Origin: a virus
Lineage: Duplodnaviria; Heunggongvirae; Uroviricota; Caudoviricetes
DNA: 14,422 nucleotides
Direction: 5' to 3' (one strand)
IMG/VR virus record: IMGVR_UViG_2681813315_000020
A program made the position numbers and the translations under genes. Shown here in pieces: positions 613 to 14,422 of the stretch (position 1 is the first letter of the stretch; the number at the start of each line of letters is the position of its first letter). The notes beneath the pieces were generated by a model. The model searched no databases. It saw nothing but the letters and a program-made list of their open reading frames with translations, and was not told the origin of the DNA.

Positions 613-906
613 TTACCGCCGCAACCGCTCCGGCTTCTTCCAGTGGTAAGTAATTTTTTCTTTCTCCTGGTACATCTCCACGCGGCGACGATATGACAAC
701 AACTCCAGAACTCTGGTGCGTATATTGCGTATATCCACGCCGTTAAGCTCGATACCGTCACGGCGCATCACCTCAGCCACCACACGCGCGTAATTTTCGG
801 CTATCACGCTGTCCGGCTGCGTGGCCTCCTGTTTGCCTGCTTCCTGGCTGATTCCGGTAACGCGGCGGATTATTTTTAGTAGTTCGGTTTCGCTCATTCT
901 CGTCAT
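613..906 (-). CDS. Hypothetical 97-aa protein, translationally coupled to terL (ATGA stop/start overlap)
   Basis: ORF MTRMSETELLKIIRRV...; its ATG (906-904) overlaps the terL TGA (905-903). No family recognised by eye. Confidence 0.5.
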   Translation of the reverse strand: MTRMSETELLKIIRRVTGISQEAGKQEATQPDSVIAENYARVVAEVMRRDGIELNGVDIRNIRTRVLELLSYRRRVEMYQEKEKITYHWKKPERLRR

Positions 907-2564
907 ACCCCATCAAACGCCGCAAGCCGCTCTTTGTGGCTGTCGCTCATATCGAATGCAAAATCCTCGTGCTCTGCCTGGAATGTGCCAAACGCCATCA
1001 GCGCCGCAACGCTCGGGTCTATCTTGTTGGATGATTTTTTCTTGTTCGGCTTGATATTGGCGTTCGCGTCACTCTGCATCACAACATTACTCATTGACCA
1101 GGCCAGCACCGGATCGCCACGATGCACAATCACCTTCCGGTTAACAAAAACTTCGAACGATTTCGCCGCCGGACTGAAACGAAGGTATGTTTGCGGGAAC
1201 GGCTCCACCTCAAATCCTGCCCCCTGTAGCTGCGTCCTCAGGTGCGTGGCGTTCCATGTATCGAAGCCCACCAGCCTGATATTGAAATTCTCTGCATCCG
1301 CCATGATGTCATCACGGATACGGTCATAATCAATGCAGTCACCCGGTGTTGTGCGTATCCAGCCCGCCTTTACCCACTGGCGATAGATGGCGCGGTTTTT
1401 ATTGGCGGGGTTCTGTAGCTGAAATTCCGGCAGATAGTGACGGGAAACCAGCATAATCTTTTTACCGACCGGAAAGGCATAGCACACGCTGGAAATATCG
1501 CTGGTTGATGATAAGTCCAGCCCCGCGTAGCACTCCTGACCGTATAAATCCGCCTCCGCGAACGTTCCGGCGCACTCCGCCCATGCACCGTTACCCATCC
1601 ACGGCGTAGCCCCCTGACACCAGATATTGAATCGCTTGGTGAGCATTTCCACCTACTGCGACGGAATACCCCGCGCTTTCTGGATGGTTGAGGCCAGTTT
1701 TTCACGATCGACGGAAACATCGATATTGGGATTCGCCTTTATCCACATCGCCGGATCGTCAACCTCGCTTTCATCATCCAGCTCGTAAATCAGCACGAAC
1801 ATGGATTCGTTCACCTCTTCACCATCCAGTATCTGGCAGCAATAGTCATAGTGTTGTTTACAGGCTGAAACAACGTTGCTCCCCGATGTGGTGATGGCAA
1901 ATAACAGCCCCTCCGGACGCGCCCCCATTCCCAGTTCAAGCGCGGAATAAACCCCGTTGTCAGGGTGCAGGTGATATTCATCCACAATGGCAAGACTCGG
2001 GTTTGTACCTTCAATGGTTGCCGCTTTTGCTGCCAGTGGCTTTAACAGGCTGTTGGTTTTCGGGTGTATCACCTTGTGTGCCTGAATATTTACCCGCTTT
2101 CGTAACGGTCGGGATAAAAGGCACATCTGACGCGCATCATCAAACACGATCCGCGCCTGATCACGACTCACGGCGGCGGTGTAAATATCCTGCTGCCCGT
2201 TTTCCATAACCAGAAACCAGTTAGCCAGGATAGCGGCGACCGTGGATTTGGCATTTTTTCGCGGCACTTCAATGAATGCGCTGGTGTATTTGCGCCGTCC
2301 GGTGGCCTTAACCTTAAAGCCCAGGATGCACGCAAAGGCGAACTGCTGCCACGGCTCCAGCTCAATGGGGCTACCGCGCATTGCGCCTTTTACGTGCGGA
2401 CACACCCTGGAAAAGGCAATAAACCGCTCCACGACCTCCGGATCGAACGTGTAAAGGGGGTTTTCAAGGTCAGAAAAATACCGTTTAACGGCCTGTTTCA
2501 GTCGTTTACAGGCCGTAATTTTGCCGTTTTTTACGCCTTCTGCGTACTCATGCCAGGCGGTCAA
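903..2564 (-). pseudogene. terL: Terminase large subunit (HK97-like TerL) interrupted by an in-frame TAG at 1653-1655; N-terminal ATPase fragment 1656-2564, C-terminal nuclease fragment 903-1652
   Basis: ORFs 1653..2564 and 903..1652 are contiguous and in the same frame (...KARGIPSQ-TAG-VEMLTKRFNIW...). The N-terminal part carries a P-loop-like motif (VPRKNAKST) and TerL-like N-terminus; the C-terminal part resembles the terminase nuclease domain. Combined about 553 aa, typical TerL size. Apparent TTG start at 2564 preceded by AGAGGA; overlaps the terS 3' end. Confidence 0.75.
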
Positions 2565-5753: not shown

Positions 5754-6899
5754 TTACTTGCCAGCCTGAATTTCCAGAATCTTGATGGCGTTCGAATCCA
5801 CCACACCACCGCCCAGATATTTCTGGGTATAGATGTTAATGAATCCAGGCTCGCTGAAATCCGGACGGGTACGCGTACCGGTTTTATGGTCAACGATGAA
5901 ATAACCGCGCTTAAAGTCACCGACTGCAATCACACCGTCTGGCATAAATTCCAGATATTCAACCGGAAGCCCCAGCAGAGAATCAGGATCACCAGCCTGT
6001 AAACGATCGCGCCAGATGTAATCACCAGTGGCATTTTTCAGTTTTTGTGCGGAGGCGGCTGTATTTGAGTTCATCACCCATACAGCTTTTTTGCGGTACT
6101 TATTGCGCAGCGTAAATTTCAGGTCAATCAGCATATCGGCGCTGAGACTGCCAGTCACTTTTTTCGTCTGGAGCGTACCGAAAGGACGGGTTTTGTCATT
6201 ATCCGTAGCGCGCGGGAAAGTCAGGAAACCTTTGGCTTTTTTCTCGCCATCACCGGAAACCAGATCCGTTTCTTCGGTATCAACGAAAGTGTCGCCAATT
6301 TCAGAAGATAACCAGCCCATAATATCGACTTCGGAAAAATCGATAATTTCCTGAGTGGTTTTCGGGTAAGCGTAGATCGGATACAGGCGGATACTGACTT
6401 CATTCAGTTTTGGGGTTGCCGTCTGGTTACGTGCCGCACCTTCTTCGCCGTGTCCCACGACCGCACCCCCGGCAGAAACCAGTTGCTTAAATTCATTACT
6501 GTGAATGGTTTTAACAGTACAGATTTTACGCATCACCGACTCATCAGAAAGCTGACGCATAATTTCTCTGTTCAGTTCCGGGATAACCGTATAACCACCA
6601 TCAGCCGGAACACTGCCGGACAGGTTGCGGGTTTCCCCGGTCAGAATGTAAGAGCGTAGCTCATTTTTGGTGATTTTATCTTCGACGGGAACACCAGGCT
6701 GGTTACGTTCTTCATCAGCCACAGACTCGAGGCGGGAAATTTCTGTGTCGAGGGAATCGGCTTTTGCACGCAGTTCATCAAACTGTTTGCCTTCGTCATC
6801 GGTTAGACTGCGGTTTTCACTGTCGGCTTTTTCCAGCAGGGATCGCATCTGGTTTTTCAGGGCGGTTTTTTGCTGGCGGAGTTCGATTAATTTCTTCAT
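5754..6899 (-). CDS. Major capsid protein, HK97 fold, with N-terminal coiled-coil (delta/scaffold-like) domain
   Basis: 381 aa. N-terminal about 100 aa predicted coiled coil (MKKLIELRQQKTALKNQMRSLLEKA...). Body has HK97-family capsid blocks (GHGEEGAARNQTATPKLNEVSIRL..., ...DLVSGDGEKKAKGFLTF...). Confidence 0.85.
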   Translation of the reverse strand: MKKLIELRQQKTALKNQMRSLLEKADSENRSLTDDEGKQFDELRAKADSLDTEISRLESVADEERNQPGVPVEDKITKNELRSYILTGETRNLSGSVPADGGYTVIPELNREIMRQLSDESVMRKICTVKTIHSNEFKQLVSAGGAVVGHGEEGAARNQTATPKLNEVSIRLYPIYAYPKTTQEIIDFSEVDIMGWLSSEIGDTFVDTEETDLVSGDGEKKAKGFLTFPRATDNDKTRPFGTLQTKKVTGSLSADMLIDLKFTLRNKYRKKAVWVMNSNTAASAQKLKNATGDYIWRDRLQAGDPDSLLGLPVEYLEFMPDGVIAVGDFKRGYFIVDHKTGTRTRPDFSEPGFINIYTQKYLGGGVVDSNAIKILEIQAGK

Positions 6900-7054
6900 G
6901 AAGGTTTTCTCGCATTGGTTAAGATTCAGGACGTGAAACCAACACGGGGGGAGCGCCGCCCGACACTCTCGGCATCTCGCAGATCAACCCGGCATCGCGC
7001 AGGGGGTCAGGCGGCATTGTGGCGGCTCACGTCTGAGTGCCACACGCCAACATA

Positions 7055-7082
7055 TACATAAAAATCAGTATGTAAACATCAA
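7055..7082 (-). promoter_or_regulatory. Candidate sigma70-type promoter for the head/packaging operon
   Basis: On the minus strand: TTGATG (7082-7077) - 16 bp - TATGTA (7060-7055), immediately downstream of the GTTGTTC repeat array and upstream of the capsid gene with an about 150-nt GC-rich leader. Hexamers are imperfect; prediction by eye only. Confidence 0.3.
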
Positions 7083-7091
7083 CCAGAATCA

Positions 7092-7123
7092 CCGAACAAC
7101 CTGGAACAACCACGAACAAATAA
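7092..7123. repeat. Three 10-bp-phased GAACAAC repeats (minus strand GTTGTTC) between the terminator and the packaging-operon promoter
   Basis: Read directly: ccGAACAACCtgGAACAACCacGAACAAAt; same motif family as 103-130 and 13111-13173. Confidence 0.6.
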
Positions 7124-7142
7124 TTTACAAAACCTGAAAAAA

Positions 7143-7163
7143 GGCCCGGAAAAAATCCGGGCC
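7143..7163. terminator. Bidirectional rho-independent terminator
   Basis: GGCCCGG-aaaaaat-CCGGGCC, flanked by an A-tract upstream and T-tract downstream on the plus strand; on the minus strand it follows the stop of the 7173..7421 gene and precedes TTTTTCAGGTTTTG. Confidence 0.8.
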
Positions 7164-7172
7164 TTTATCGCT

Positions 7173-7421
7173 TTATTGTTTCACTGGCTCCCGCATTCTG
7201 CGTCTTATTTTCCACAAATATTCGATCATCGCTTCCACCTGCTCACGGTTGGTTGCGAAAATTTCCCCGGTCAGTGAGCTACGCAGAAAATCATGATGAT
7301 CCACAAAAAATAACGCATCGGAAGAAAGCAACCGACGATATTTTTTTGCTGTCGTGGTTTCCAGATCATCAAAACCATGAAGCTTTTTATGTTGCTGAAC
7401 TTCTTCAAATGTCACTGGCAT
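7173..7421 (-). CDS. Hypothetical 82-aa protein
   Basis: ORF with strong SD (AAGGGGGA) before ATG 7421; start overlaps the 3' end of the FinO/ProQ-like gene; followed by the terminator. No family recognised. Confidence 0.5.
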   Translation of the reverse strand: MPVTFEEVQQHKKLHGFDDLETTTAKKYRRLLSSDALFFVDHHDFLRSSLTGEIFATNREQVEAMIEYLWKIRRRMREPVKQ

Positions 7422-7942
7422 GTATCCCCCTTTGCTGCCCGGCGCTGGCGCTTGTGCTTCTCATTCAGCACCATCAGCCGTGTTTCTGCCTCCTGCTGTT
7501 CCTGTGGTGTCACTTCCCCACATGGCTGGCCTTTCAGATCGTAACGTGCGCCACCAGCTATCAGGGCGCGGTAATAGCGCGGAGACTGCGCATAGGATGC
7601 CAGCGTCGCACGTAATACCCCCGGCCCGAATGCCAGCCCCCTGACGGCGATATCCTGCATCAGGTCGTCGAATATCCCCACCTTAAGCGGCTTCGGTGCT
7701 TTATGGCTGAATAAGTCAGGCCACATCTCAGTGAGGCGGTTAACGCGTCGGCGGTTTTTGCGCTGCCTTTTGGTCATATGCTGCCACGGTGTCGCCCCTG
7801 TGGGCTTCTGCTGTGCGTTCTGATTGCCGGGTATCACTTTATGCGCCGATGTGGTTTTATCCTGCTCTTGCGCCGCCTGCGTCGTTTTCTGCGGCGTGCC
7901 GTAAATGCCTTTCGGCTTCCGGTTAATGGTCAGCGTTGTCAT
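7412..7942 (-). CDS. FinO/ProQ-family RNA-binding (RNA chaperone-like) protein
   Basis: 176 aa; region WPDLFSHKAPKPLKVGIFDDLMQDIAVRGLAFGPGVLRATLASYAQSPRYYRALIAGGARYDLKGQPCGEVTPQEQQEAE matches the conserved ProQ/FinO N-terminal domain pattern (PLKIGIFQDL...LR.AL..YT.S.RY...G..R.DL.G.P.GE). SD GGGGAAGG before ATG 7942. Confidence 0.65.
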   Translation of the reverse strand: MTTLTINRKPKGIYGTPQKTTQAAQEQDKTTSAHKVIPGNQNAQQKPTGATPWQHMTKRQRKNRRRVNRLTEMWPDLFSHKAPKPLKVGIFDDLMQDIAVRGLAFGPGVLRATLASYAQSPRYYRALIAGGARYDLKGQPCGEVTPQEQQEAETRLMVLNEKHKRQRRAAKGDTCQ

Positions 7943-7978
7943 GCCTTCCCCTGTAATTACTCTGTTCGCTGTTGTGAA

Positions 7979-8404
7979 TTAAAACGGTATGTTATCCCCG
8001 TACGGGTCATCGTGCTGGCTTGTCTGTTGTTTTGCCCTGTTCAGTGCGTCAGTGGCCTGGCCCTGTTGACCTTTTTTGCCGCCCGGTCGCGCCGTTCGCG
8101 CACTGATTACGCTGTCTGCAATAACCTGCCAGCCCCGCTGCGTTTCCCCGTTCTGGCCTGTCCACTGGCTCACCTGCATGTTACCCGCCACGCTCACCAG
8201 TTCGCCTTTGTGGTGTTTTGCCAGTGCGTCGGCCTGTCTGCCAAACGCCAGGACAGATAACCACATCGTCGCCGTTCCGTCATCTGCCTGGCTGCATGGC
8301 AGGGGAACCGCCATACTCGCCATCGCCATTTGTGTCCCCTTGCTGGTGGTCTTTAACTGCGGGTCAGCCACCAGCCGCCCGTAAGCCGCTATCTGTGCTG
8401 TCAT
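7979..8404 (-). CDS. ssb: Single-stranded DNA-binding protein
   Basis: 141 aa; OB-fold-like N-terminal region (AAYGRLVADPQLKTTSKG...WLSVLAFGRQADALAKHHKGELVSVAGNMQVSQWTGQNGE), Gly/Gln-rich linker and acidic C-terminal tail ending DDPYGDNIPF, cf. the canonical SSB DDDIPF tail. Confidence 0.8.
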   Translation of the reverse strand: MTAQIAAYGRLVADPQLKTTSKGTQMAMASMAVPLPCSQADDGTATMWLSVLAFGRQADALAKHHKGELVSVAGNMQVSQWTGQNGETQRGWQVIADSVISARTARPGGKKGQQGQATDALNRAKQQTSQHDDPYGDNIPF

Positions 8405-8646
8405 GCTGTCTGCTCTCCGGTTTTAACGTTGATGGTTGTCACCTGTTCCGCTTCGGCAATCTCCCGTTCTGTCAGTGTGGCAAAGTTTGCCGCTGCCGTG
8501 GTCATGAATGCGCTTACCAGTTCGGGATGTGCTTTTGCGTACCCTTCTCCCGCGTTGCGGTCGATGATTTTTATCGCCACCCTCAGCCAGTGTTCTGTCA
8601 AATCAAGGGCGTGAGATTGTGTTTTTTTTGCGTGCTGCGTTGTCAC
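8401..8646 (-). CDS. Hypothetical 81-aa protein between the origin and ssb
   Basis: ORF overlapping the ssb start (ATGA-type coupling). No family recognised. Confidence 0.45.
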   Translation of the reverse strand: MTTQHAKKTQSHALDLTEHWLRVAIKIIDRNAGEGYAKAHPELVSAFMTTAAANFATLTEREIAEAEQVTTINVKTGEQTA

Positions 8647-8691
8647 AGGCTTTACCTCACAGCAATAAAATAAAATTTTTGCATTTTAACC

Positions 8692-8920
8692 CTTCACCTG
8701 TTCACCTTTTGAGATTTTCCCTTTTTATTCATAATGTTAAGGGGTGAACAGTTTCACAAAAACTATTCACCAACTGTTCACCACTGTTCACCCTTAAAGC
8801 TCAATAAATAATCAAAAAGGTGAACAGTGAATAGTTTGGTGAACAGTTCACAAATAACTGTTCACCCTATAATGTACTGATATAAAAGATATTTATAACA
8901 GGGTGAACAGTGGTGAACAG
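8692..8920. repeat. Iteron array (about 12 copies of GGTGAACAG / CTGTTCACC in both orientations) with adjacent AT-rich tract 8663-8690; candidate replication origin
   Basis: Read directly: cttcaccTGTTCACC, GGGTGAACAG, tattcaccaaCTGTTCACCaCTGTTCACCc, aGGTGAACAGtgaatag...GGTGAACAGttcac...CTGTTCACCc, GGGTGAACAGtGGTGAACAG. Lies immediately 3' of the primase/helicase gene, the usual place for satellite and plasmid origins. Confidence 0.75.
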
Positions 8921-8933
8921 TTATTCCATAAGT

Positions 8934-10748
8934 TTAATTTTTGCTGTCGTCATTTGTGACCGATGCACATGATGGCATCCAGTCTTCTGAATCCTCTGTC
9001 AGTGTCACATTTGAACGCAAACCGTGCTTCGTTTTCCGTTTTATATACTCCCTGCCATATTCCGCCATTGCCCCCGGCATATCTTTACCGAAGCGCGTCA
9101 GTGTTACAGGTTTACCGAATCCGTGTGCCCTCATATATGCCAGATAGGCGTGATAAAGATACCTGCGCGGACTGAACGGAATAATTTCGGCATTACCCAC
9201 TAACAGACCATCACACATTACCGACGACATGAGATAGCCACAGAAGTCCACCAGCGAATCGCCCTCGCGTTTTATCACCAGAGCTTCTTCTGATTTCTGC
9301 TGCTCATACAGCAGGCGTTTAGCTTCGTCCTGGTCAGAAAAACGAGTAAGCAGATGGCGAATCACAACCGCCAGCTCTCCTTCTATTTTTTCTGCCAGCA
9401 TGGGGTCGCGCTCGTTCTCCGGTACAACCTCCGAAAAATTGAATATCACCCGACGACGTGAGATCCCCCCGCTGCGGTCACTGAATGACATGGCGTTATT
9501 GTTCACCGCCAGCACGACCGCCTGAATGCGTGTTGAGTAGGGGGCTTTATGCTTCGGGTCGATTGCCACCTTGTCACCGCCTGTAATAGCCTTAATTCCT
9601 GCGCCATCACCAGCGTAGCGGGTCATATCCGGCATGATAATCAGCGAAAAGCCAACCACTAACGCGCGTTCCCTTGCATCTTCCAGCGCCTTCATGCTTG
9701 CCGATACTGTGTTGGCCTTACCCGCCAGCATGGTGCAAATCTCCGCCATCACGCTTTTACCACTTCCCCCTGGACCTGTTACCTCAATGAATAACTGCCA
9801 GTCGTACCGGTTCGCCAGCACCATGAATAATGCAGCCAGCACGCGATCCGTCTTGCGGTCATTCTCTGCCACCGAGCAGCGTAACCACTTCCAGAAATTC
9901 GGCGCATGTGTTGCCAGCGTTTCCCCCTCTGCTGGTGGGCTGAAAGGTAATTCACTGGCAATTAACAACCAGTCGTTTTTGTTATGCTCCCGAAAATTAC
10001 CTGTTCTGGTATCAAATACCCCGTTACTGAATCCAATCAGGTTACGGGCTGTATTCCCCATTACAGGCAAACTTAACTTCATGGTATCGACCGCCGATTT
10101 AATGGCGTTCTGCGAATAGCTGATCTCCGCATCAATGAAAATCTGCGCCATAGCACGCTGTAACTCTTTATCCTGAATCGGCTCCCATACAACGCCGTTG
10201 TAATGGTGAACAGTGTCAGAGTCGGCATGAATCGCCAGTTCACCGCCATAATGTGCCAGGAGAACTTCGCCGCGCTGGCTTGCTCCCATCTGGTTAAGCG
10301 CCAGTGGTGCGGCGCTGTCTTCTGTTTTTTTCTTAACAGGAAGCTGAATCACCAGACCATCAGAAAGATTCTGGCGCTCACGGGCCAGATATTCGCGCCA
10401 GTTCTGCACCTCCTGGCCGTGCATACCCTCAGGATAAAAATTTGCATCCTGTACGCCTGCCGCCGCCAGCTTCTGACCAATCGCCTTTATCATTACTGGC
10501 GCAAGATATCCGGCCCTGAATATGCGCACGGATTTTCTGCCTTCCGGCACAATTTGCAGCTTATCCAGTTCGGATAACTGCTGCTCCCCAAGCCACACAG
10601 GAGGCTCATTATCTCCGGCCATACGCGCGTCATGTTCCTGCCATTGTTTTGCGTGTGACCAGGCATCACTACCCGCAAAAATAATGACTTCTGTTTCTTT
10701 GTGTTTTATGCCGCGTGACTGCTGTTTTACGTTCGGTGCCAGTTTCAT
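8934..10748 (-). CDS. Replication initiator: primase/helicase-type protein with D5_N-like region and P-loop NTPase domain
   Basis: 604 aa; Walker A FIEVTGPGGSGKSVMAE; upstream region resembles the D5 N-terminal-like domain found with phage/plasmid primase C-terminal NTPases. Stop codon abuts the iteron array. Confidence 0.8.
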   Translation of the reverse strand: MKLAPNVKQQSRGIKHKETEVIIFAGSDAWSHAKQWQEHDARMAGDNEPPVWLGEQQLSELDKLQIVPEGRKSVRIFRAGYLAPVMIKAIGQKLAAAGVQDANFYPEGMHGQEVQNWREYLARERQNLSDGLVIQLPVKKKTEDSAAPLALNQMGASQRGEVLLAHYGGELAIHADSDTVHHYNGVVWEPIQDKELQRAMAQIFIDAEISYSQNAIKSAVDTMKLSLPVMGNTARNLIGFSNGVFDTRTGNFREHNKNDWLLIASELPFSPPAEGETLATHAPNFWKWLRCSVAENDRKTDRVLAALFMVLANRYDWQLFIEVTGPGGSGKSVMAEICTMLAGKANTVSASMKALEDARERALVVGFSLIIMPDMTRYAGDGAGIKAITGGDKVAIDPKHKAPYSTRIQAVVLAVNNNAMSFSDRSGGISRRRVIFNFSEVVPENERDPMLAEKIEGELAVVIRHLLTRFSDQDEAKRLLYEQQKSEEALVIKREGDSLVDFCGYLMSSVMCDGLLVGNAEIIPFSPRRYLYHAYLAYMRAHGFGKPVTLTRFGKDMPGAMAEYGREYIKRKTKHGLRSNVTLTEDSEDWMPSCASVTNDDSKN

Positions 10749-11032
10749 TTTTTACCCCCTGCGACCAGCATTTCACGAATTTTGCGGATATGACTTGCTG
10801 CACGTTTCTGATTTACGGCTTTACGATGGCCCACCAGCGTGAAATCACGCCGGAACTGATAAACAGGCATCACGCAGTCATATTCGTAGCCATCACGGCG
10901 GTAAGTGATGCGCCGTTCTGCCACGCCTTTTATCGTTACCGTGCCGCCATAGTTATCCCGGAAAATATCGCCGGGGCGGATTTCAGGCCGAGCGGGGCCG
11001 CTGGCAGTAAAGCCAGAAATTTTCTGTTTCAT
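10745..11032 (-). CDS. Hypothetical 95-aa protein, translationally coupled to the primase gene
   Basis: ORF whose stop overlaps the primase ATG (ATGA); 5 nt after the stop of the upstream gene. Confidence 0.5.
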   Translation of the reverse strand: MKQKISGFTASGPARPEIRPGDIFRDNYGGTVTIKGVAERRITYRRDGYEYDCVMPVYQFRRDFTLVGHRKAVNQKRAASHIRKIREMLVAGGKK

Positions 11033-11037
11033 GGTTT

Positions 11038-11265
11038 TTATTCCGCGTTTATTTTTTTATCGTGAATTTCGATCGCTTTATTTAATTCGACGATTACCGT
11101 ATCGAGTAATGAAATAAACGCACCAGCAAGATTAGACTCACGCTCATCTTCCGGCGCATCACTTAAACCATCAAGCCAGATAAGAAATATTTGCCTCAAA
11201 CATTCACTGTTAGTCAGTGCGTTTTCTGCATGGCTCATTGATTTAAGATAACGGTCATCATGCAT
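11038..11265 (-). CDS. Hypothetical about 75-aa protein
   Basis: ATG at 11265 preceded by GGGGG (MHDDRYLKSMSHAENALT...); overlaps the stop of the upstream gene (ATGATGA context). The track ORF extends to 11310 but that start lacks an SD. Confidence 0.4.
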   Translation of the reverse strand: MHDDRYLKSMSHAENALTNSECLRQIFLIWLDGLSDAPEDERESNLAGAFISLLDTVIVELNKAIEIHDKKINAE

Positions 11266-11494
11266 GGTGCACCCCCTGAATATCTGCGGTAAGAATTTTG
11301 CCTGCCTCATTCAGCGCCATATCAGCACTAAATTGCATAAGAGCCAGTGAGTGAGGAACGAAAGCCCCGGCATATTCTGTTTCGCTGGTGGCGTGCTTAT
11401 GCGCCTTGTCTGCGATAACAGAAATATCAATCAGCGCGTGCATCAGCGTTTTGATGGCTTCGGCGGCTGCGTCCGGTGTGGTTTTATTGTGCAT
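11258..11494 (-). CDS. Hypothetical 78-aa protein
   Basis: ATG at 11494 preceded by strong SD AGGGGGAAA; overlaps the 3' end of the upstream gene. Confidence 0.5.
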   Translation of the reverse strand: MHNKTTPDAAAEAIKTLMHALIDISVIADKAHKHATSETEYAGAFVPHSLALMQFSADMALNEAGKILTADIQGVHHA

Positions 11495-11774
11495 AGGTTT
11501 CCCCCTGGCGAATACGGGCAGCGAATACCATCACGCAGCCATCAGGAGATTGCTGACGCGCTTCCTGTTCGCTGGTGGCCTCAATGGTAATCACGCGCGG
11601 TTGTGCCGTGCTCAGGGCAATAAAACGCCAGATGTATTTATTCAGGTTGTACGAGTCCCGCCCTTGCGGGTGTCTGGTATAATTTCTCATAGCTGCCTCG
11701 ATACGCTTTCTATCGTTGGTGGTTAGACGCCCTGCATGTGTGCCACCACTGCGGGGCGTTGTTGTTTGGTGCAT
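11484..11774 (-). CDS. Hypothetical about 96-aa protein, first gene of the replication operon; weak, unverified resemblance to Icd-like small proteins
   Basis: First ATG is at 11774 (MHQTTTPRSGG...YIWRFIALSTAQPRVITIEATSEQEARQQ...VMVFAARI); the longer track ORF would need a TTG start at 11861 inside the divergent promoter. Family guess is from memory only. Confidence 0.35.
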   Translation of the reverse strand: MHQTTTPRSGGTHAGRLTTNDRKRIEAAMRNYTRHPQGRDSYNLNKYIWRFIALSTAQPRVITIEATSEQEARQQSPDGCVMVFAARIRQGETYAQ

Positions 11775-11859
11775 CGCACCATTCGGTTTTAACCTATCAA
11801 TAAGTGAATCGCACCTCAAGCCTTTCTCTGAAATTTTTTTGTGTATACTGAATCGCACC
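11771..11859. promoter_or_regulatory. Divergent promoter/operator region with three ATCGCACC direct repeats
   Basis: gcATCGCACC (11771-11780), gaATCGCACC (11806-11815), gaATCGCACC (11850-11859). A good -10-like TATACT at 11844-11849 lies just before the third copy, upstream of the plus-strand RHH gene (SD AGAGAGGA, ATG 11880). Confidence 0.4.
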
Positions 11860-11879
11860 AACTTAGAGAGGATTCAGTA

Positions 11880-12059
11880 ATGGCAACAGGTTCAACAAAT
11901 AATAAGTCGCAACAGTTAAATGCCAGATTCCCGCATGATGTTGTTGCAGACTTAGAAAAAAATTTAGATGAAGGTGAAAGCAAGGCGCAATTTATAGTTA
12001 CTGCCGTTAAAGGTGAGATCAAACGCCGCCAGCGCCGCAAGGCCAAAGAGCAGGAGTAA
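11880..12059 (+). CDS. Small ribbon-helix-helix (Arc/MetJ-like) DNA-binding protein, candidate regulator
   Basis: 59 aa from ATG 11880: MATGSTNNKSQQLNARFPHDVVADLEKNLDEGESKAQFIVTAVKGEIKRRQRRKAKEQE; pattern of a short beta-strand (LNARFP) followed by two helices and a basic tail resembles the Arc repressor (FNLRWPREVLDLVRKVAEENGRSVNSEIYQRV). Confidence 0.5.
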   Translation: MATGSTNNKSQQLNARFPHDVVADLEKNLDEGESKAQFIVTAVKGEIKRRQRRKAKEQE

Positions 12060-12101
12060 CCATCACCAGCGCCGTGGTGTAAGGTATTACGGCGCATTGC
12101 T

Positions 12102-12290
12102 ATGCAGGACAACACAATGACCGATAAAGAATTGACCAAAACATTATCACCGACACGGAAAAGACGACGCAGAAAGATAGAGCATGAATCAGAAAGATTC
12201 GCGCCATGTGCTTTTGCCCTTGAGCAATTCCTTAAAGAGTACAGGGAAAAGCGCTCATTGCAGGTATGGCAACGAACTGAACCAGACTGA
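12102..12290 (+). CDS. Hypothetical small basic protein (start may be ATG 12117)
   Basis: ORF MQDNTMTDKELTKTLSPTRKRRRRKIEHESERF...; AGGA lies 9 nt before the second ATG; followed by an intrinsic terminator at 12357-12388. Confidence 0.35.
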   Translation: MQDNTMTDKELTKTLSPTRKRRRRKIEHESERFAPCAFALEQFLKEYREKRSLQVWQRTEPD

Positions 12291-12356
12291 TTGCATTGCC
12301 CACCAGCCGCAAATGTGGCATTGTTGGTGATGCTTTTGTTTTCCCTTGTTCTCACT

Positions 12357-12388
12357 GGCGACCCTTTTGCGGTCGCCTTTGTTTTGCC
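12357..12388 (+). terminator. Rho-independent terminator
   Basis: GGCGACC-cttttgc-GGTCGCC followed by TTTGTTTTG. Confidence 0.7.
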
Positions 12389-12481
12389 TGTTATCCGGCA
12401 ATTGTGGCGCTTCGCCACACGGTTGATATAATTCCCCTGCACTGATCCATTTTTTTCGCAGCAGGTTAATTGTTCAGAAAG

Positions 12482-12510
12482 GCGGTTCCTTATCGGGGCC
12501 GCTTTTTTTA
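12482..12510 (+). terminator. Second candidate rho-independent terminator
   Basis: GCGGTTCC-ttatc-GGGGCCGC (two G-U wobbles) followed by TTTTTTTA. Confidence 0.45.
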
Positions 12511-12622
12511 TGCCTGAAAATACCCGATAACATGGCTTTTTAGTTTCACCAGGACGAACGAAGCCCCGCCCCTGTTCGGGCGTATATCCAGTATTCATGG
12601 TTAGATCTCTGTGTTAGTGGAT

Positions 12623-12647
12623 GGCTGGCGGCGGTGCGCCGCCAGCC
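12623..12647. other. Perfect GC-rich hairpin 3 nt past the alpA stop (no U-tract)
   Basis: GGCTGGCGGCG-gtg-CGCCGCCAGCC, 11-bp stem. Confidence 0.5.
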
Positions 12648-12650
12648 TGA

Positions 12651-12854
12651 TTAGTGAACTGCCTCGCGGCTGTCCTTCCATGCCAGAACTTCGGATAAAG
12701 ACCAGCCAACGGAACGACCGCCGAGTTTACGCCGTGATGGGAATTGTCCAGTCTTCTCCAGGCGATACCGACATGAGCGGCTCAGGCCTGTAAGTTGCTG
12801 ACATTCTTTTTCACGTATAAAGCGATCAGCGCTTAACACTATTGCCTCCGTCAT
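12651..12854 (-). CDS. alpA: AlpA-family transcriptional regulator / excisionase-like winged-helix protein
   Basis: 67 aa (or 62 aa from GTG 12839, preceded by GGAGG): ...DRFIREKECQQLTGLSRSCRYRLEKTGQFPSRRKLGGRSVGWSLSEVLAWKDSR, matching the AlpA signature (R.....TGLSRSTIYRL...G.FP...KLG.R.V.W...EV..W). Downstream of and co-oriented with int as in CP4-57 (intA...alpA). Confidence 0.8.
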   Translation of the reverse strand: MTEAIVLSADRFIREKECQQLTGLSRSCRYRLEKTGQFPSRRKLGGRSVGWSLSEVLAWKDSREAVH

Positions 12855-13110
12855 TTCTCAAAGAGTCATTTGGTGTCTTATTGTGTCGTATTGTTCCCGC
12901 TAGAGTGATGAATGGCAAATATTGGTGACGGTCGTTTTACAGATATGGGGTAATTAGAATAAAAATACTTTTAATTCATTGTGATGTAGTAGCGTAAAAT
13001 TTTGCTTTTACGCCTTTTTTACATATTTTTAAGAGTGATTCGCCAGTGTATAAAAAAACAGTGTACATATAAAAATCAAATGGTTATGAATGAGTTTGAT
13101 TTTTAATCCG

Positions 13111-13173
13111 CTTGTCCCATTTTGTTCCTTGTTGTTCGTCGTTGTGTCTCGTTGTTCCACGTTGTGTCCGTTC
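13111..13173. repeat. Six tandem 10-bp-phased GTTGT(T/G)(T/C)C repeats between the int stop and alpA
   Basis: Read directly: CTTGTCCCat TTTGTTCCtt GTTGTTCGtc GTTGTGTCtc GTTGTTCCac GTTGTGTCcg. Opposite orientation to arrays at 103-130 and 7092-7123; shares an exact 12-mer with 103-130. Confidence 0.65.
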
Positions 13174-13192
13174 TGAAAAATCACGAAAAAAA

Positions 13193-14422
13193 TTATATTT
13201 CTCTGGCTATTGGCAGTGTGGTTACGTTTTCGTGAGTACCCGCCAGTATCTCTAACCGCTCTGTCCACATGTCCAGCGCATTACGTTTCGCATCGAGATA
13301 ACGGGAGTGGTTATAGACTCGCTGCATCCCTGGCATCTGGTGAGCGGTGAGTTGTTCGACAATATGCGGATCCACGCCTAAATCGTTCAGCATCGTGGTA
13401 AACGTGCGCCGTATATCGTGTAGTGACCAGTGCGGATGGTTTAATTTTTTGTGCGTGAATCTGCCGTATTGCGACACGCTGGCTTCCTGTTTCAGTTCCC
13501 CGAGTAATAGTCCTGTGTGTCGGTTCTGCTCCACCAGCCGTGTGACGAACGGTAAAATGCTTTCCGGTATTGGCCTGAATATGGCGACCTTCGTTTTGCT
13601 GTGCTCCTTCGGTACTGTCCAGAGCATTTCCTTAAAATCCCACTCCCTGATCTCCGACAGCCTCAGTTCTCCGGTTCGGCAACCAAACACAATCAGGAGG
13701 CGGATTAGTGCGCTGTAGTAGGGCGGGAATATTTTTTTATCCAGCGCCTGTAATAATTCGCCCAGTTCTTTGTTACTAAGCACGCGTTCGCTTATGCCCG
13801 GCTTTTTGCCAACGTCCACCACGTTGAGATCATCCAGAACGTTACTGACTGCGTAGCGACGTTTACGGCAGAACTTAAGCGCCTGTTTACACGCCTGCAT
13901 CATGTGACCAGACGTTACGGGGGATTTTTTGCGTATCCGGTCAAAACAGGCCAGCCAGTGACGTAATTCGCATTTATCCAGTGGCATGTTACCGATGTGC
14001 TGTATGACGTGATTATTCAGGCGACTTTTCAGGCATACATAATCGACACGGTTTTCCTTTACGTGCGTTTCCAGCCAGTAACTGATCGCATCGCCAACCG
14101 TTACGGGTTTTAACGCTTCCTGCACAGTGTAGTTCAGTTCATGACGTGGGTTTTTCCCTTCTGCCAGCCATGCACGACACTTTGCGGCTTTTTCCCTGGC
14201 TGCTTTAAGGCTCAGATCGGGATAGTTTCCCAGCTTCAGGCGTTCCGGTGTGGTATCCCTTCCCGTTCCAGCCCTGTAGGTGAAGTACCAGGTCAATTTA
14301 CCTGATGTTAAATATTTCACGCTCAGATTACCGCCATCGCTATAGAACGTATTTTTCTCCGCTGGCTTACCATAAAGTTTTCTTAACAATGTATCGCTCA
14401 GTTTGTTAAGCGCTCTGCTCAC
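13193..14422 (-). CDS. int: Tyrosine integrase, P4/CP4-57 type, with N-terminal arm-binding (DUF4102-like) domain; 5' end at or just beyond the window edge
   Basis: 409 aa reaching the window edge, where the first codon is GTG. N-terminus LSDTLLRKLYGKPAEKNTFYSDGGNLSVKYLTSGKLTWYFTYR resembles the P4-type integrase N-terminal domain; C-terminal catalytic region has HDIRRT and VYNHSRY (tyrosine recombinase His-x-x-Arg and Tyr motifs). Confidence 0.9.
   Translation of the reverse strand: MSRALNKLSDTLLRKLYGKPAEKNTFYSDGGNLSVKYLTSGKLTWYFTYRAGTGRDTTPERLKLGNYPDLSLKAAREKAAKCRAWLAEGKNPRHELNYTVQEALKPVTVGDAISYWLETHVKENRVDYVCLKSRLNNHVIQHIGNMPLDKCELRHWLACFDRIRKKSPVTSGHMMQACKQALKFCRKRRYAVSNVLDDLNVVDVGKKPGISERVLSNKELGELLQALDKKIFPPYYSALIRLLIVFGCRTGELRLSEIREWDFKEMLWTVPKEHSKTKVAIFRPIPESILPFVTRLVEQNRHTGLLLGELKQEASVSQYGRFTHKKLNHPHWSLHDIRRTFTTMLNDLGVDPHIVEQLTAHQMPGMQRVYNHSRYLDAKRNALDMWTERLEILAGTHENVTTLPIAREI

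Follow-up and report, generated by a model that had tools for sequence, protein, structure and literature searches.

A FinO-domain protein encoded in an optional cassette of the early operon of an Escherichia coli phage satellite

FinO-domain proteins constitute the third major class of bacterial RNA chaperones. To our knowledge, the characterised cases from mobile elements (FinO, FopA and the mimicry of RocC by plasmids) all govern transfer, replication or DNA uptake via one antisense RNA, and RNA-level control in the phage-inducible chromosomal islands (PICIs) of Gram-negative bacteria has hardly been studied. Here we describe a stretch of 14,422 nucleotides (nt) from the IMG/VR virus record IMGVR_UViG_2681813315_000020, in the following called the window, which is a capsid-forming PICI (cf-PICI) of E. 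coli. At 7412..7942 on its minus strand it carries an open reading frame (ORF) with an ATG start and 176 amino acids (aa; RefSeq WP_000209991.1). An original prediction, made from the letters of the window, had proposed for this gene a ProQ/FinO domain, a position beside ssb and the replication genes of a phage satellite and, as a consequence, an RNA-based regulatory layer in the element. The domain, the satellite context and the placement in the operon were all borne out by our analysis, and the gene is an optional cargo cassette of these islands. It is possible that the protein binds terminator hairpins and modulates an antisense control of the island in the manner of FinO and FopA, and we put this reading forward tentatively.

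The finding is less novel than the original prediction had implied, since the RefSeq label of the gene in the related island of E. coli AST85 is already 'ProQ/FINO family protein'. Moreover, the literature contains passing references to ProQ/FinO-like genes of PICI-type satellites (PMC13612085; bioRxiv 10.1101/2025.10.10.681744), namely for Enterobacter cloacae (PMC13612085) and for Vibrio episomal satellites, and a review of the family mentions phage- and island-borne members. The literature searched contained no study of the function of a FinO-domain protein encoded by a satellite.

The search with profile models that had been suggested as a check of the domain was run, and the Pfam profile PF04352 (ProQ/FinO) matches the 176-aa protein with an E-value of 1.2e-23 and 83.5 bits, the gathering score of the profile being 27 bits. 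The match covers aa 64-168 and profile positions 5-108/109, the domain is complete, and the corresponding part of the window (7439..7753, minus strand) can be aligned to ProQ, FinO and RocC. The NCBIfam models for FinO (NF010317) and ProQ (NF003434) reach 65.5 bits and 58.4 bits with this protein and thereby stay below their cutoffs of 136 and 127 bits, respectively. Because these scores are so far under the cutoffs, the protein is, judged by its sequence, a member of the ProQ/FinO family but an orthologue of neither FinO nor ProQ. It is not an orthologue of FopA either. Among the sequences in the PDB, it matches the N-terminal domain of ProQ (5nb9, E-value 1e-11) and FinO (1dvo, 9e-11) as well as NMB1681, Lpp1663 and RocC, and a search with the family profile sharpens the matches to 5nb9 and 1dvo to 1.8e-19 and 1.5e-16, respectively. 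The AlphaFold model, for which an alignment of 27 homologues served as input, is confident for aa 55-171 (means of 10-residue blocks: 76-95). For aa 1-49 the predicted local distance difference test score is below 50, and the protein is predicted to be disordered up to approximately aa 50. When this model was compared to the PDB with Foldseek, the top 27 matches were all FinO-domain structures. The best one was FinO itself (1dvo; E-value 8.5e-7, root mean square deviation 1.9 A over 102 columns), and other top matches were to NMB1681 and to RocC, one of them the RNA-bound structure 7rgu. The protein is predicted to adopt the FinO fold.

The structure of RocC in complex with RNA revealed that a pocket of Gly52, Tyr87 and Arg97 grips the 3'-terminal nucleotide, that Arg75 touches the RNA backbone and that the helix with Ser70 as N-cap binds the hairpin (PMC9674577). 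Gly52, Arg75, Tyr87 and Arg97 of RocC align with G89, R111, Y123 and R133 of the satellite protein, and these residues are kept in at least 90% of the family or nearly so (R111 in 24 of the 27 sequences). In comparison to 26 diverged copies, the ratio of nonsynonymous to synonymous substitution rates (dN/dS) is 0.15-0.36, and the protein is therefore under purifying selection. This includes the N-terminal extension of 63 residues (7754..7942, minus strand), which is constrained despite its predicted disorder (dN/dS mostly 0.09-0.4) and comprises a conserved MTxLTINRKPKG motif, a linker rich in Q, T and K and a basic stretch (TPWxHMTKRQRKNRRR). An antisense hairpin is located within the gene at 7750-7767 on the plus strand, and since it overlaps the strongly conserved RQRKNRRR codons, its conservation is uninterpretable. 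No known defence-system protein was matched by PADLOC, and the four PHROG families with a match are all annotated as 'unknown function'.

A cf-PICI is defined by genes for an integrase (int), a regulator (alpA), a primase-replicase, capsid, protease, portal, head-tail adaptor/connector, HNH, terS and terL and by the lack of tail and holin genes (PMC10085698). The window contains int (13193-14422, minus strand), alpA (12651..12854, minus strand; Pfam Phage_AlpA, E-value 3.4e-18), a gene for a D5-type primase/helicase (8934..10748, minus strand; Pfam D5_N, Pox_D5 and DUF5906), an iteron origin, ssb and the genes for an HK97 capsid, protease, portal, connector, HNH, TerS and TerL, and there are no tail or lysis genes within its 14,422 nt. 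By its gene content, the element is a cf-PICI. The replication origin (8698..8920) is situated in an AT-rich gap between the primase gene and orf81 and has ten GGTGAACAG iterons in both orientations, a number that was reached by 0 of 200 shuffles.

Read from right to left, the genes on the minus strand follow the order int, alpA, an Icd-like gene, a DUF4222 gene, the D5-type primase gene, the origin, orf81, ssb, the ProQ-like gene and orf82, and the genes from capsid to TerL form a module apart from this early operon. The stop codon of ssb (7979..8404, minus strand; Pfam SSB, E-value 1.1e-15; TIGR00621) is separated from the start of the ProQ-like gene by only 36 nt. The start of orf82 (phrog_1957; 7173..7421, minus strand), the last gene of the early operon, overlaps the stop of the ProQ-like gene by 10 nt. 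Directly after orf82 there is a strong intrinsic terminator of the early/replication operon (7137..7166, minus strand; AAAGGCCCGGA-UUUUU-UCCGGGCCUUUUUU), which has the shape of a ProQ-type ligand and a predicted folding energy of -23.5 kcal/mol (z -4.86). No other terminator-like site was detected on the minus strand from 10370, within the primase gene, to this terminator, and hence there is none from the origin over ssb to the ProQ-like gene. Past the terminator, at 7076-7049, the capsid operon has a promoter-like site. Because of the short gap, the lack of an intervening terminator and the terminator right after orf82, co-transcription of the ProQ-like gene with ssb and the replication genes is the natural reading of the sequence. 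Other PICIs also have a single small ORF after the ProQ-like gene and overlapping with it (PerC-like with 94-95 aa, or 138 aa), and the equivalent terminator is located 270-660 nt past the ProQ-like stop, the gene being typically the penultimate one of the early operon. The classical PICIs (L002, 8689-8967; L008-L013; many IMG/VR loci) show translational coupling of the ProQ-like gene to the PerC-like or 138-aa ORF. This suggests that the ProQ-like gene and the PerC-like ORF form a two-gene accessory unit, in which orf82 takes the PerC-like place in the window.

Relatives of the gene at the DNA level were found in 1094 of 5426 complete E. coli genomes (approximately 20%). They occupy 1513 places in total, all of them chromosomal and at most eight per genome. 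Plasmid FinO is only about 35% identical over the domain, and among phage records only seven match, and these weakly. A search of 1.84 billion representative proteins resulted in 2148 clusters at E-values up to 1e-3 and in only nine at E-values up to 1e-30, so that the clade is a narrow branch of a large family; it is confined to Escherichia and close relatives. A scan of genome contigs gave three loci (E. ruysiae, E. albertii and Crenobacter), which are too few for statistics on the gene context. Three contexts can be distinguished, namely cf-PICIs, classical PICIs with the order DUF4222, primase, [orf81], [ssb], ProQ-like gene and small ORF, where brackets mark genes that may be lacking, and the backbones of pathogenicity islands, in which the copies adjoin UCP030791, AlpA and YagK/YfjJ genes.

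Within the PICIs, presence of the gene varies between close relatives. Among 72 loci that were retrieved independently of the ProQ-like gene and are long enough to be judged, 24 possess it and 48 do not. Collinearity of the window with the sibling cf-PICIs L037, L086, L133 and L109 extends to the ssb stop and resumes approximately 10-16 nt before the start of orf82. In L037 and L086, 8 nt replace the 548-nt cassette, and L133 and L109 have only a few nt at this site. Other siblings contain an unrelated insert of approximately 330 nt in the same slot. Since siblings join ssb to orf82 without the gene or carry another insert, the ProQ-like gene is an optional cargo cassette and not a core replication gene. 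The interval from 7431 to 7979 between ssb and orf82 is itself a variable cargo slot that can be empty, hold the ProQ-like cassette or hold an unrelated insert.

The interval between alpA and icd contains many RNA signals on the plus strand, antisense to the operon. It harbours an inverted cassette of small genes (11880..12290, plus strand) that is convergent with alpA and consists of a ylcI/ynfO-like gene (11880-12059) and orf62 (12102-12290); equivalents of ylcI and orf62 are called in L009-L013. At the 3' end of the predicted ylcI-orf62 transcript there is a two-hairpin RNA element (12293..12386, plus strand), which comprises the hairpin SL-I (12293-12333), the terminator T1 (12357-12377) and a U tail that extends to 12386 (fold z -4.24). 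In 30 diverse copies of SL-I/T1, G-C/G.U alternations and one compensatory pair fit the plus strand only, and a core of 40 nt is nearly invariant amid mosaic flanks. The element occurs on at least 120 IMG/VR contigs (80 listed). A query of 231 nt that combines SL-I/T1 with the adjacent candidate described below matched 1575 of the 5426 E. coli genomes (approximately 29%), where the region is mostly unannotated.

This second element is a candidate gene for a small RNA (sRNA) at 12424..12509 on the plus strand. It has an invariant extended -10 element (TGATATAAT, 12424-12432), a predicted start at approximately 12439, a conserved body with AGGUUAAUUGUUC and a terminator at 12481-12509 (hairpin 12481-12502, U7 12503-12509), of which the sequence varies by lineage and the hairpin shape is kept. 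Its flanks fall into four or more unrelated types. Since conservation stops at the U tract, the flanks are mosaic and the -10 element is invariant, 12424-12509 is a candidate for an independent sRNA gene with a predicted product of approximately 70 nt. Single-sequence folds were used for this candidate; RNAalifold was muddled by the two terminator types and the promoter columns. Rfam scans of the window gave no known RNA family, and neither SL-I/T1 nor the sRNA candidate was matched. Plant miRNA-like matches on the origin iterons were spurious, and the matches to generic combinations of an sRNA and a terminator were below the threshold. A blastn search with SL-I/T1 against phage genomes had no matches, and a full-text literature search for the sequences of the elements found nothing. 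The plus-strand terminators are flanked by A-U pairs or a U.U mismatch under the closing pair. Flanks of this type have been reported for ligands of the FinO domain of ProQ, whereas the ligands of FinO itself (FinP and RepX) have a purine-purine mismatch at that spot (PMC12001967). From their sequence, both candidate RNAs are plausible ligands of the satellite protein and equally of the host ProQ.

RNA-level control is a family trait of these PICIs, with different solutions per island. The sister PICIs L002 (13282-13470) and L016 (9391-9576) possess P4/P1-type isrK and C4 RNAs just upstream of the Icd-like gene, which resembles the c4-icd-ant arrangement of P1, and an int-alpA RNA motif is present in L008 (963-1030), L031 (13210-13277) and L036 (11672-11739). 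None of these three, isrK, C4 or the int-alpA motif, was detected in the window at Rfam thresholds. We had also considered the region following alpA as an immunity RNA of the P4/P1-type (C4/CI), and rejected this, since P4, L002 and L016 have isrK and C4 and the window has neither. The Pfam 'Ash protein family' matches the historical 'cI' ORF of phage P4 (L135, 8168-8584), which overlaps the C4/CI immunity RNA, and 'ash family' pseudo-ORFs of PICIs (e.g. L002, 13267-13647) likewise cover RNA elements; SL-I/T1 frequently lies hidden beneath such annotations. An 'ash family' ORF in these islands is probably not a real protein, and the family may be largely an artefact of conserved RNA genes.

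The reading that we tentatively prefer is that of a binder of terminator hairpins in the style of FinO and FopA, which modulates an antisense control of the island. Its domain-level part is very likely. The ProQ-like protein, with its gene near the far end of the early/replication operon, would be synthesised once the island switches on and would grip the base of an intrinsic-terminator hairpin together with the 3' U tail. By analogy to the action of FinO on FinP/traJ and of FopA on Inc/repZ, binding might make the RNA more stable and let it pair faster with a complementary transcript. Within the island, the best candidate partners would be SL-I/T1 (12293-12386) and the sRNA-like element (12424-12509) on the plus strand between alpA and icd, both of which would be antisense to a read-through of alpA into the replication operon. 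In this way a protein from the far end of the operon could feed back on its near end, as finO does on traJ, and the geometry of finO, FinP and traJ (PMC9977716) matches such an arrangement. FinO-domain genes also recur beside the replication functions of mobile elements, as in the cases of FopA, a Salmonella plasmid ORF and the Vibrio cf-PISP. The Salmonella case, a possible one, is an unannotated 145-aa FinO-like ORF on the S. arizonae plasmid CP053320 (L136, 2947-3384); the 375-aa ORF immediately upstream of it resembles a replication initiator, judged by its sequence. This plasmid ORF is different from FopA, for which the pCol1B9 protein was used in the comparisons. Unlike the domain, the predicted fold, the pocket, the selection, the operon anatomy, the status as a cassette and the conservation of the RNA elements, which were read from the data, the RNA binding, the partner identity and the feedback loop are what we infer.

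Several observations weigh against this preferred reading. The highly conserved N-cap serine of the family (Ser70 in RocC) is Gly106 in the satellite protein, where it is conserved as FGxG. Glycine can likewise cap helices. Transcription of the plus-strand RNAs and the read-through of alpA are predicted. Siblings without the cassette look intact as satellites, and the function is therefore dispensable. Both candidate RNAs are present in PICIs without the gene (48 of 72), so that any partnership is non-exclusive, and the host ProQ could serve the same RNAs. In the pathogenicity islands L003, L004 and L014, which carry copies of the gene, no such RNA elements were found within approximately 9 kb. 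Finally, a scan for co-variation in 50-nt tiles of 6800-13300, which compared the 24 ProQ-plus with the 48 ProQ-minus PICIs, found only the gene itself to be specific to the ProQ-plus islands. A slight excess at tiles 12550-12600 looks like an effect of backbone lineage. The original prediction had named the terminator-flanked region 12390-12510 as a possible partner of the protein. This region is indeed bounded by two plus-strand intrinsic terminators and holds the conserved sRNA-like gene, a plausible ligand, but its role as the partner is weakened by its occurrence in islands without the protein. The claim that the protein implies an RNA-based layer was not supported in this form, since its presence alone does not point to a layer of its own: approximately two thirds of the related PICIs contain the candidate RNAs and lack the gene, and nothing co-varies with it. 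We consider it rather unlikely that SL-I/T1 and the sRNA of approximately 70 nt form an undescribed antisense module of Escherichia PICIs and cf-PICIs, located between alpA and the replication operon, with the optional FinO-like protein as its dedicated chaperone, and thus a FinOP-like switch that tunes induction and replication of the satellite.

The lack of a co-varying island RNA would suit a binder of broad specificity, and the protein might be a general protector of 3' ends. It would shield many terminator hairpins, among them the one at the end of its own operon (7137-7166) and those of the late capsid/packaging operon or of host mRNAs, from exonucleases and polyadenylation without any antisense pairing and would thereby raise expression in the short window of induction. 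ProQ does so on many mRNAs (PMC12086684, PMC7367173). The A-U extended, ProQ-type shape of the operon terminator and the occurrence of the gene in pathogenicity-island contexts without PICI RNAs are also in line with this role. However, the FinO proteins of mobile elements that have been studied (FinO, FopA and RocC) have narrow target sets, and the gain from a second protein is unclear when the host already supplies ProQ. We regard a general protector as doubtful. The variable slot, which like the accessory genes of PICIs can be empty or otherwise filled, would also fit a cargo gene that acts in trans in conflicts between mobile elements. Its product might bind RNAs that stem from the helper phage, from conjugative plasmids (FinP-like) or from host toxin-antitoxin loci and shift the lysis-lysogeny decision of the helper, plasmid transfer or host physiology. 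The translational coupling to a PerC-like regulator in classical PICIs, a host-directed accessory gene, the identity of approximately 35% to FinO over the domain and the up to eight matching places per genome, spread over pathogenicity islands, agree with this idea. It is a speculation from gene position, and PADLOC gave no match to a known defence system. We judge it improbable.

A role in replication is suggested by the gene's location in PICIs, which is always just after the primase and the origin, with or without orf81 and ssb, and by the fact that FinO-domain genes often adjoin replication genes. Together with SSB, the protein could bind structured single-stranded nucleic acid at the iteron origin or the RNA primers of the D5-type primase. 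However, what the pocket recognises is an RNA hairpin with a ribose 3'-OH end. The gene is also missing in many sibling PICIs that share the primase and the origin, and the copies in pathogenicity islands have no replication module nearby. We hold a replication accessory to be quite improbable. It is hardly credible that the gene is a non-functional passenger or in decay. The island copy in the window is damaged by a nonsense codon in terL and in the closest RefSeq copy the capsid gene is truncated, but the ORF of the ProQ-like gene is intact in dozens of diverged copies, its key residues are conserved, and the purifying selection (dN/dS 0.15-0.36) contradicts a decaying gene.

The damage to the two islands deserves a short description. 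In the window, terL (903-2564, minus strand) has an in-frame TAG at 1653-1655 (codon 304), where the closest relative has TGG (Trp), and the large terminase is thereby divided into ORFs of 303 and 249 aa. If this TAG is no sequencing error, the satellite copy in the window should be unable to package its own DNA. The related island of E. coli AST85 (L001) sits between allC/allD and allE/glxK and is 99.8% identical over the 2-kb ssb/ProQ-like region and 93-99% over the whole island. Approximately 825 bp of its major capsid gene (corresponding to 5780-6604 of the window) are missing, and the annotation calls this gene partial. In the two near-identical islands, the damage thus affects different morphogenesis genes. 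Two sets of repeats were found in addition. One set consists of three operator-like repeats at 11767-11860 (two copies of GAATCGCACC and the palindrome TGGTGCATCGCACCA). It is flanked by the divergently oriented ylcI (plus strand) and icd (minus strand) and is likely the main regulatory switch of the island. Repeats of GAACAAC/GTTGTTC occur at 7094-7110, upstream of the capsid-operon promoter, and at 13131-13157, downstream of int, and could be candidate binding sites of AlpA or Int; the number of GAACAAC motifs across the window is not significant (reached in 14 of 200 shuffles).

At present, the finding is a well-supported annotation. The most useful outcomes of this study are the conserved RNA elements on the plus strand and the natural siblings with and without the cassette. 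As the clade is common and such sibling islands exist in nature, a clean functional test should be easy. If the protein works with the conserved plus-strand RNAs, an RNA switch would be added to the life cycle of the satellite, and if it acts on RNAs of helpers or plasmids, it would represent a new type of weapon between mobile elements. Should the FinOP-like switch exist, the siblings without the cassette would be natural 'finO-minus' variants, either derepressed or reliant on the host ProQ.

Among the known FinO-domain systems are the genes of the E. cloacae PICI AVS0889 and the Vibrio cf-PISP. Compared by their description, these are also FinO-domain genes in PICI-type elements, listed under accessory or maintenance functions, and have received only passing mentions in the literature. 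The minimal or single-target proteins NMB1681 from Neisseria meningitidis and RocC and Lpp1663 from Legionella pneumophila share the fold and the pocket for the 3' nucleotide with the satellite protein. However, the identity is only 24-32%, hosts and contexts are different, and the N-cap Ser70 of RocC is replaced by Gly106. By sequence, the chromosomal ProQ of enterobacteria (5nb9) is the top match in the PDB. Its key RNA-binding residues recur in the satellite protein, and the island terminators have ProQ-type flanks. In contrast to ProQ, the satellite protein has neither the linker nor the C-terminal Tudor-like domain (PF04352 is the only Pfam domain in its 176 aa), and its score with the ProQ model stays below the cutoff (58.4 vs 127 bits).

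FopA (YafB) from the IncI plasmid pCol1B9 resembles the satellite protein in having two basic stretches followed by the FinO domain and no C-terminal domain. It is also encoded by a mobile element, and its control of replication via the antisense RNA Inc is documented. Nevertheless, the identity is only 35% over 83 aa within the domain, the N-termini have unrelated motifs and cannot be aligned, and FopA belongs to a plasmid instead of a satellite, the window containing no Inc/repZ-type replicon. With the FinO model, the satellite protein stays below the cutoff (65.5 vs 136 bits), and FinO from F-like plasmids differs from it in the N-terminus and in the presence of a FinP/traJ pair, which the island lacks. 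The satellite gene is chromosomal and island-borne, was never found in a tra operon and has no tra genes nearby. On the other hand, FinO (1dvo) is the best structural match of the predicted model, with approximately 35% identity over the domain and likewise a basic N-terminal extension in front of it. In both systems, the gene is located at the far end of a long operon and the antisense RNAs, in the case of the island the candidate ones, at its near end.

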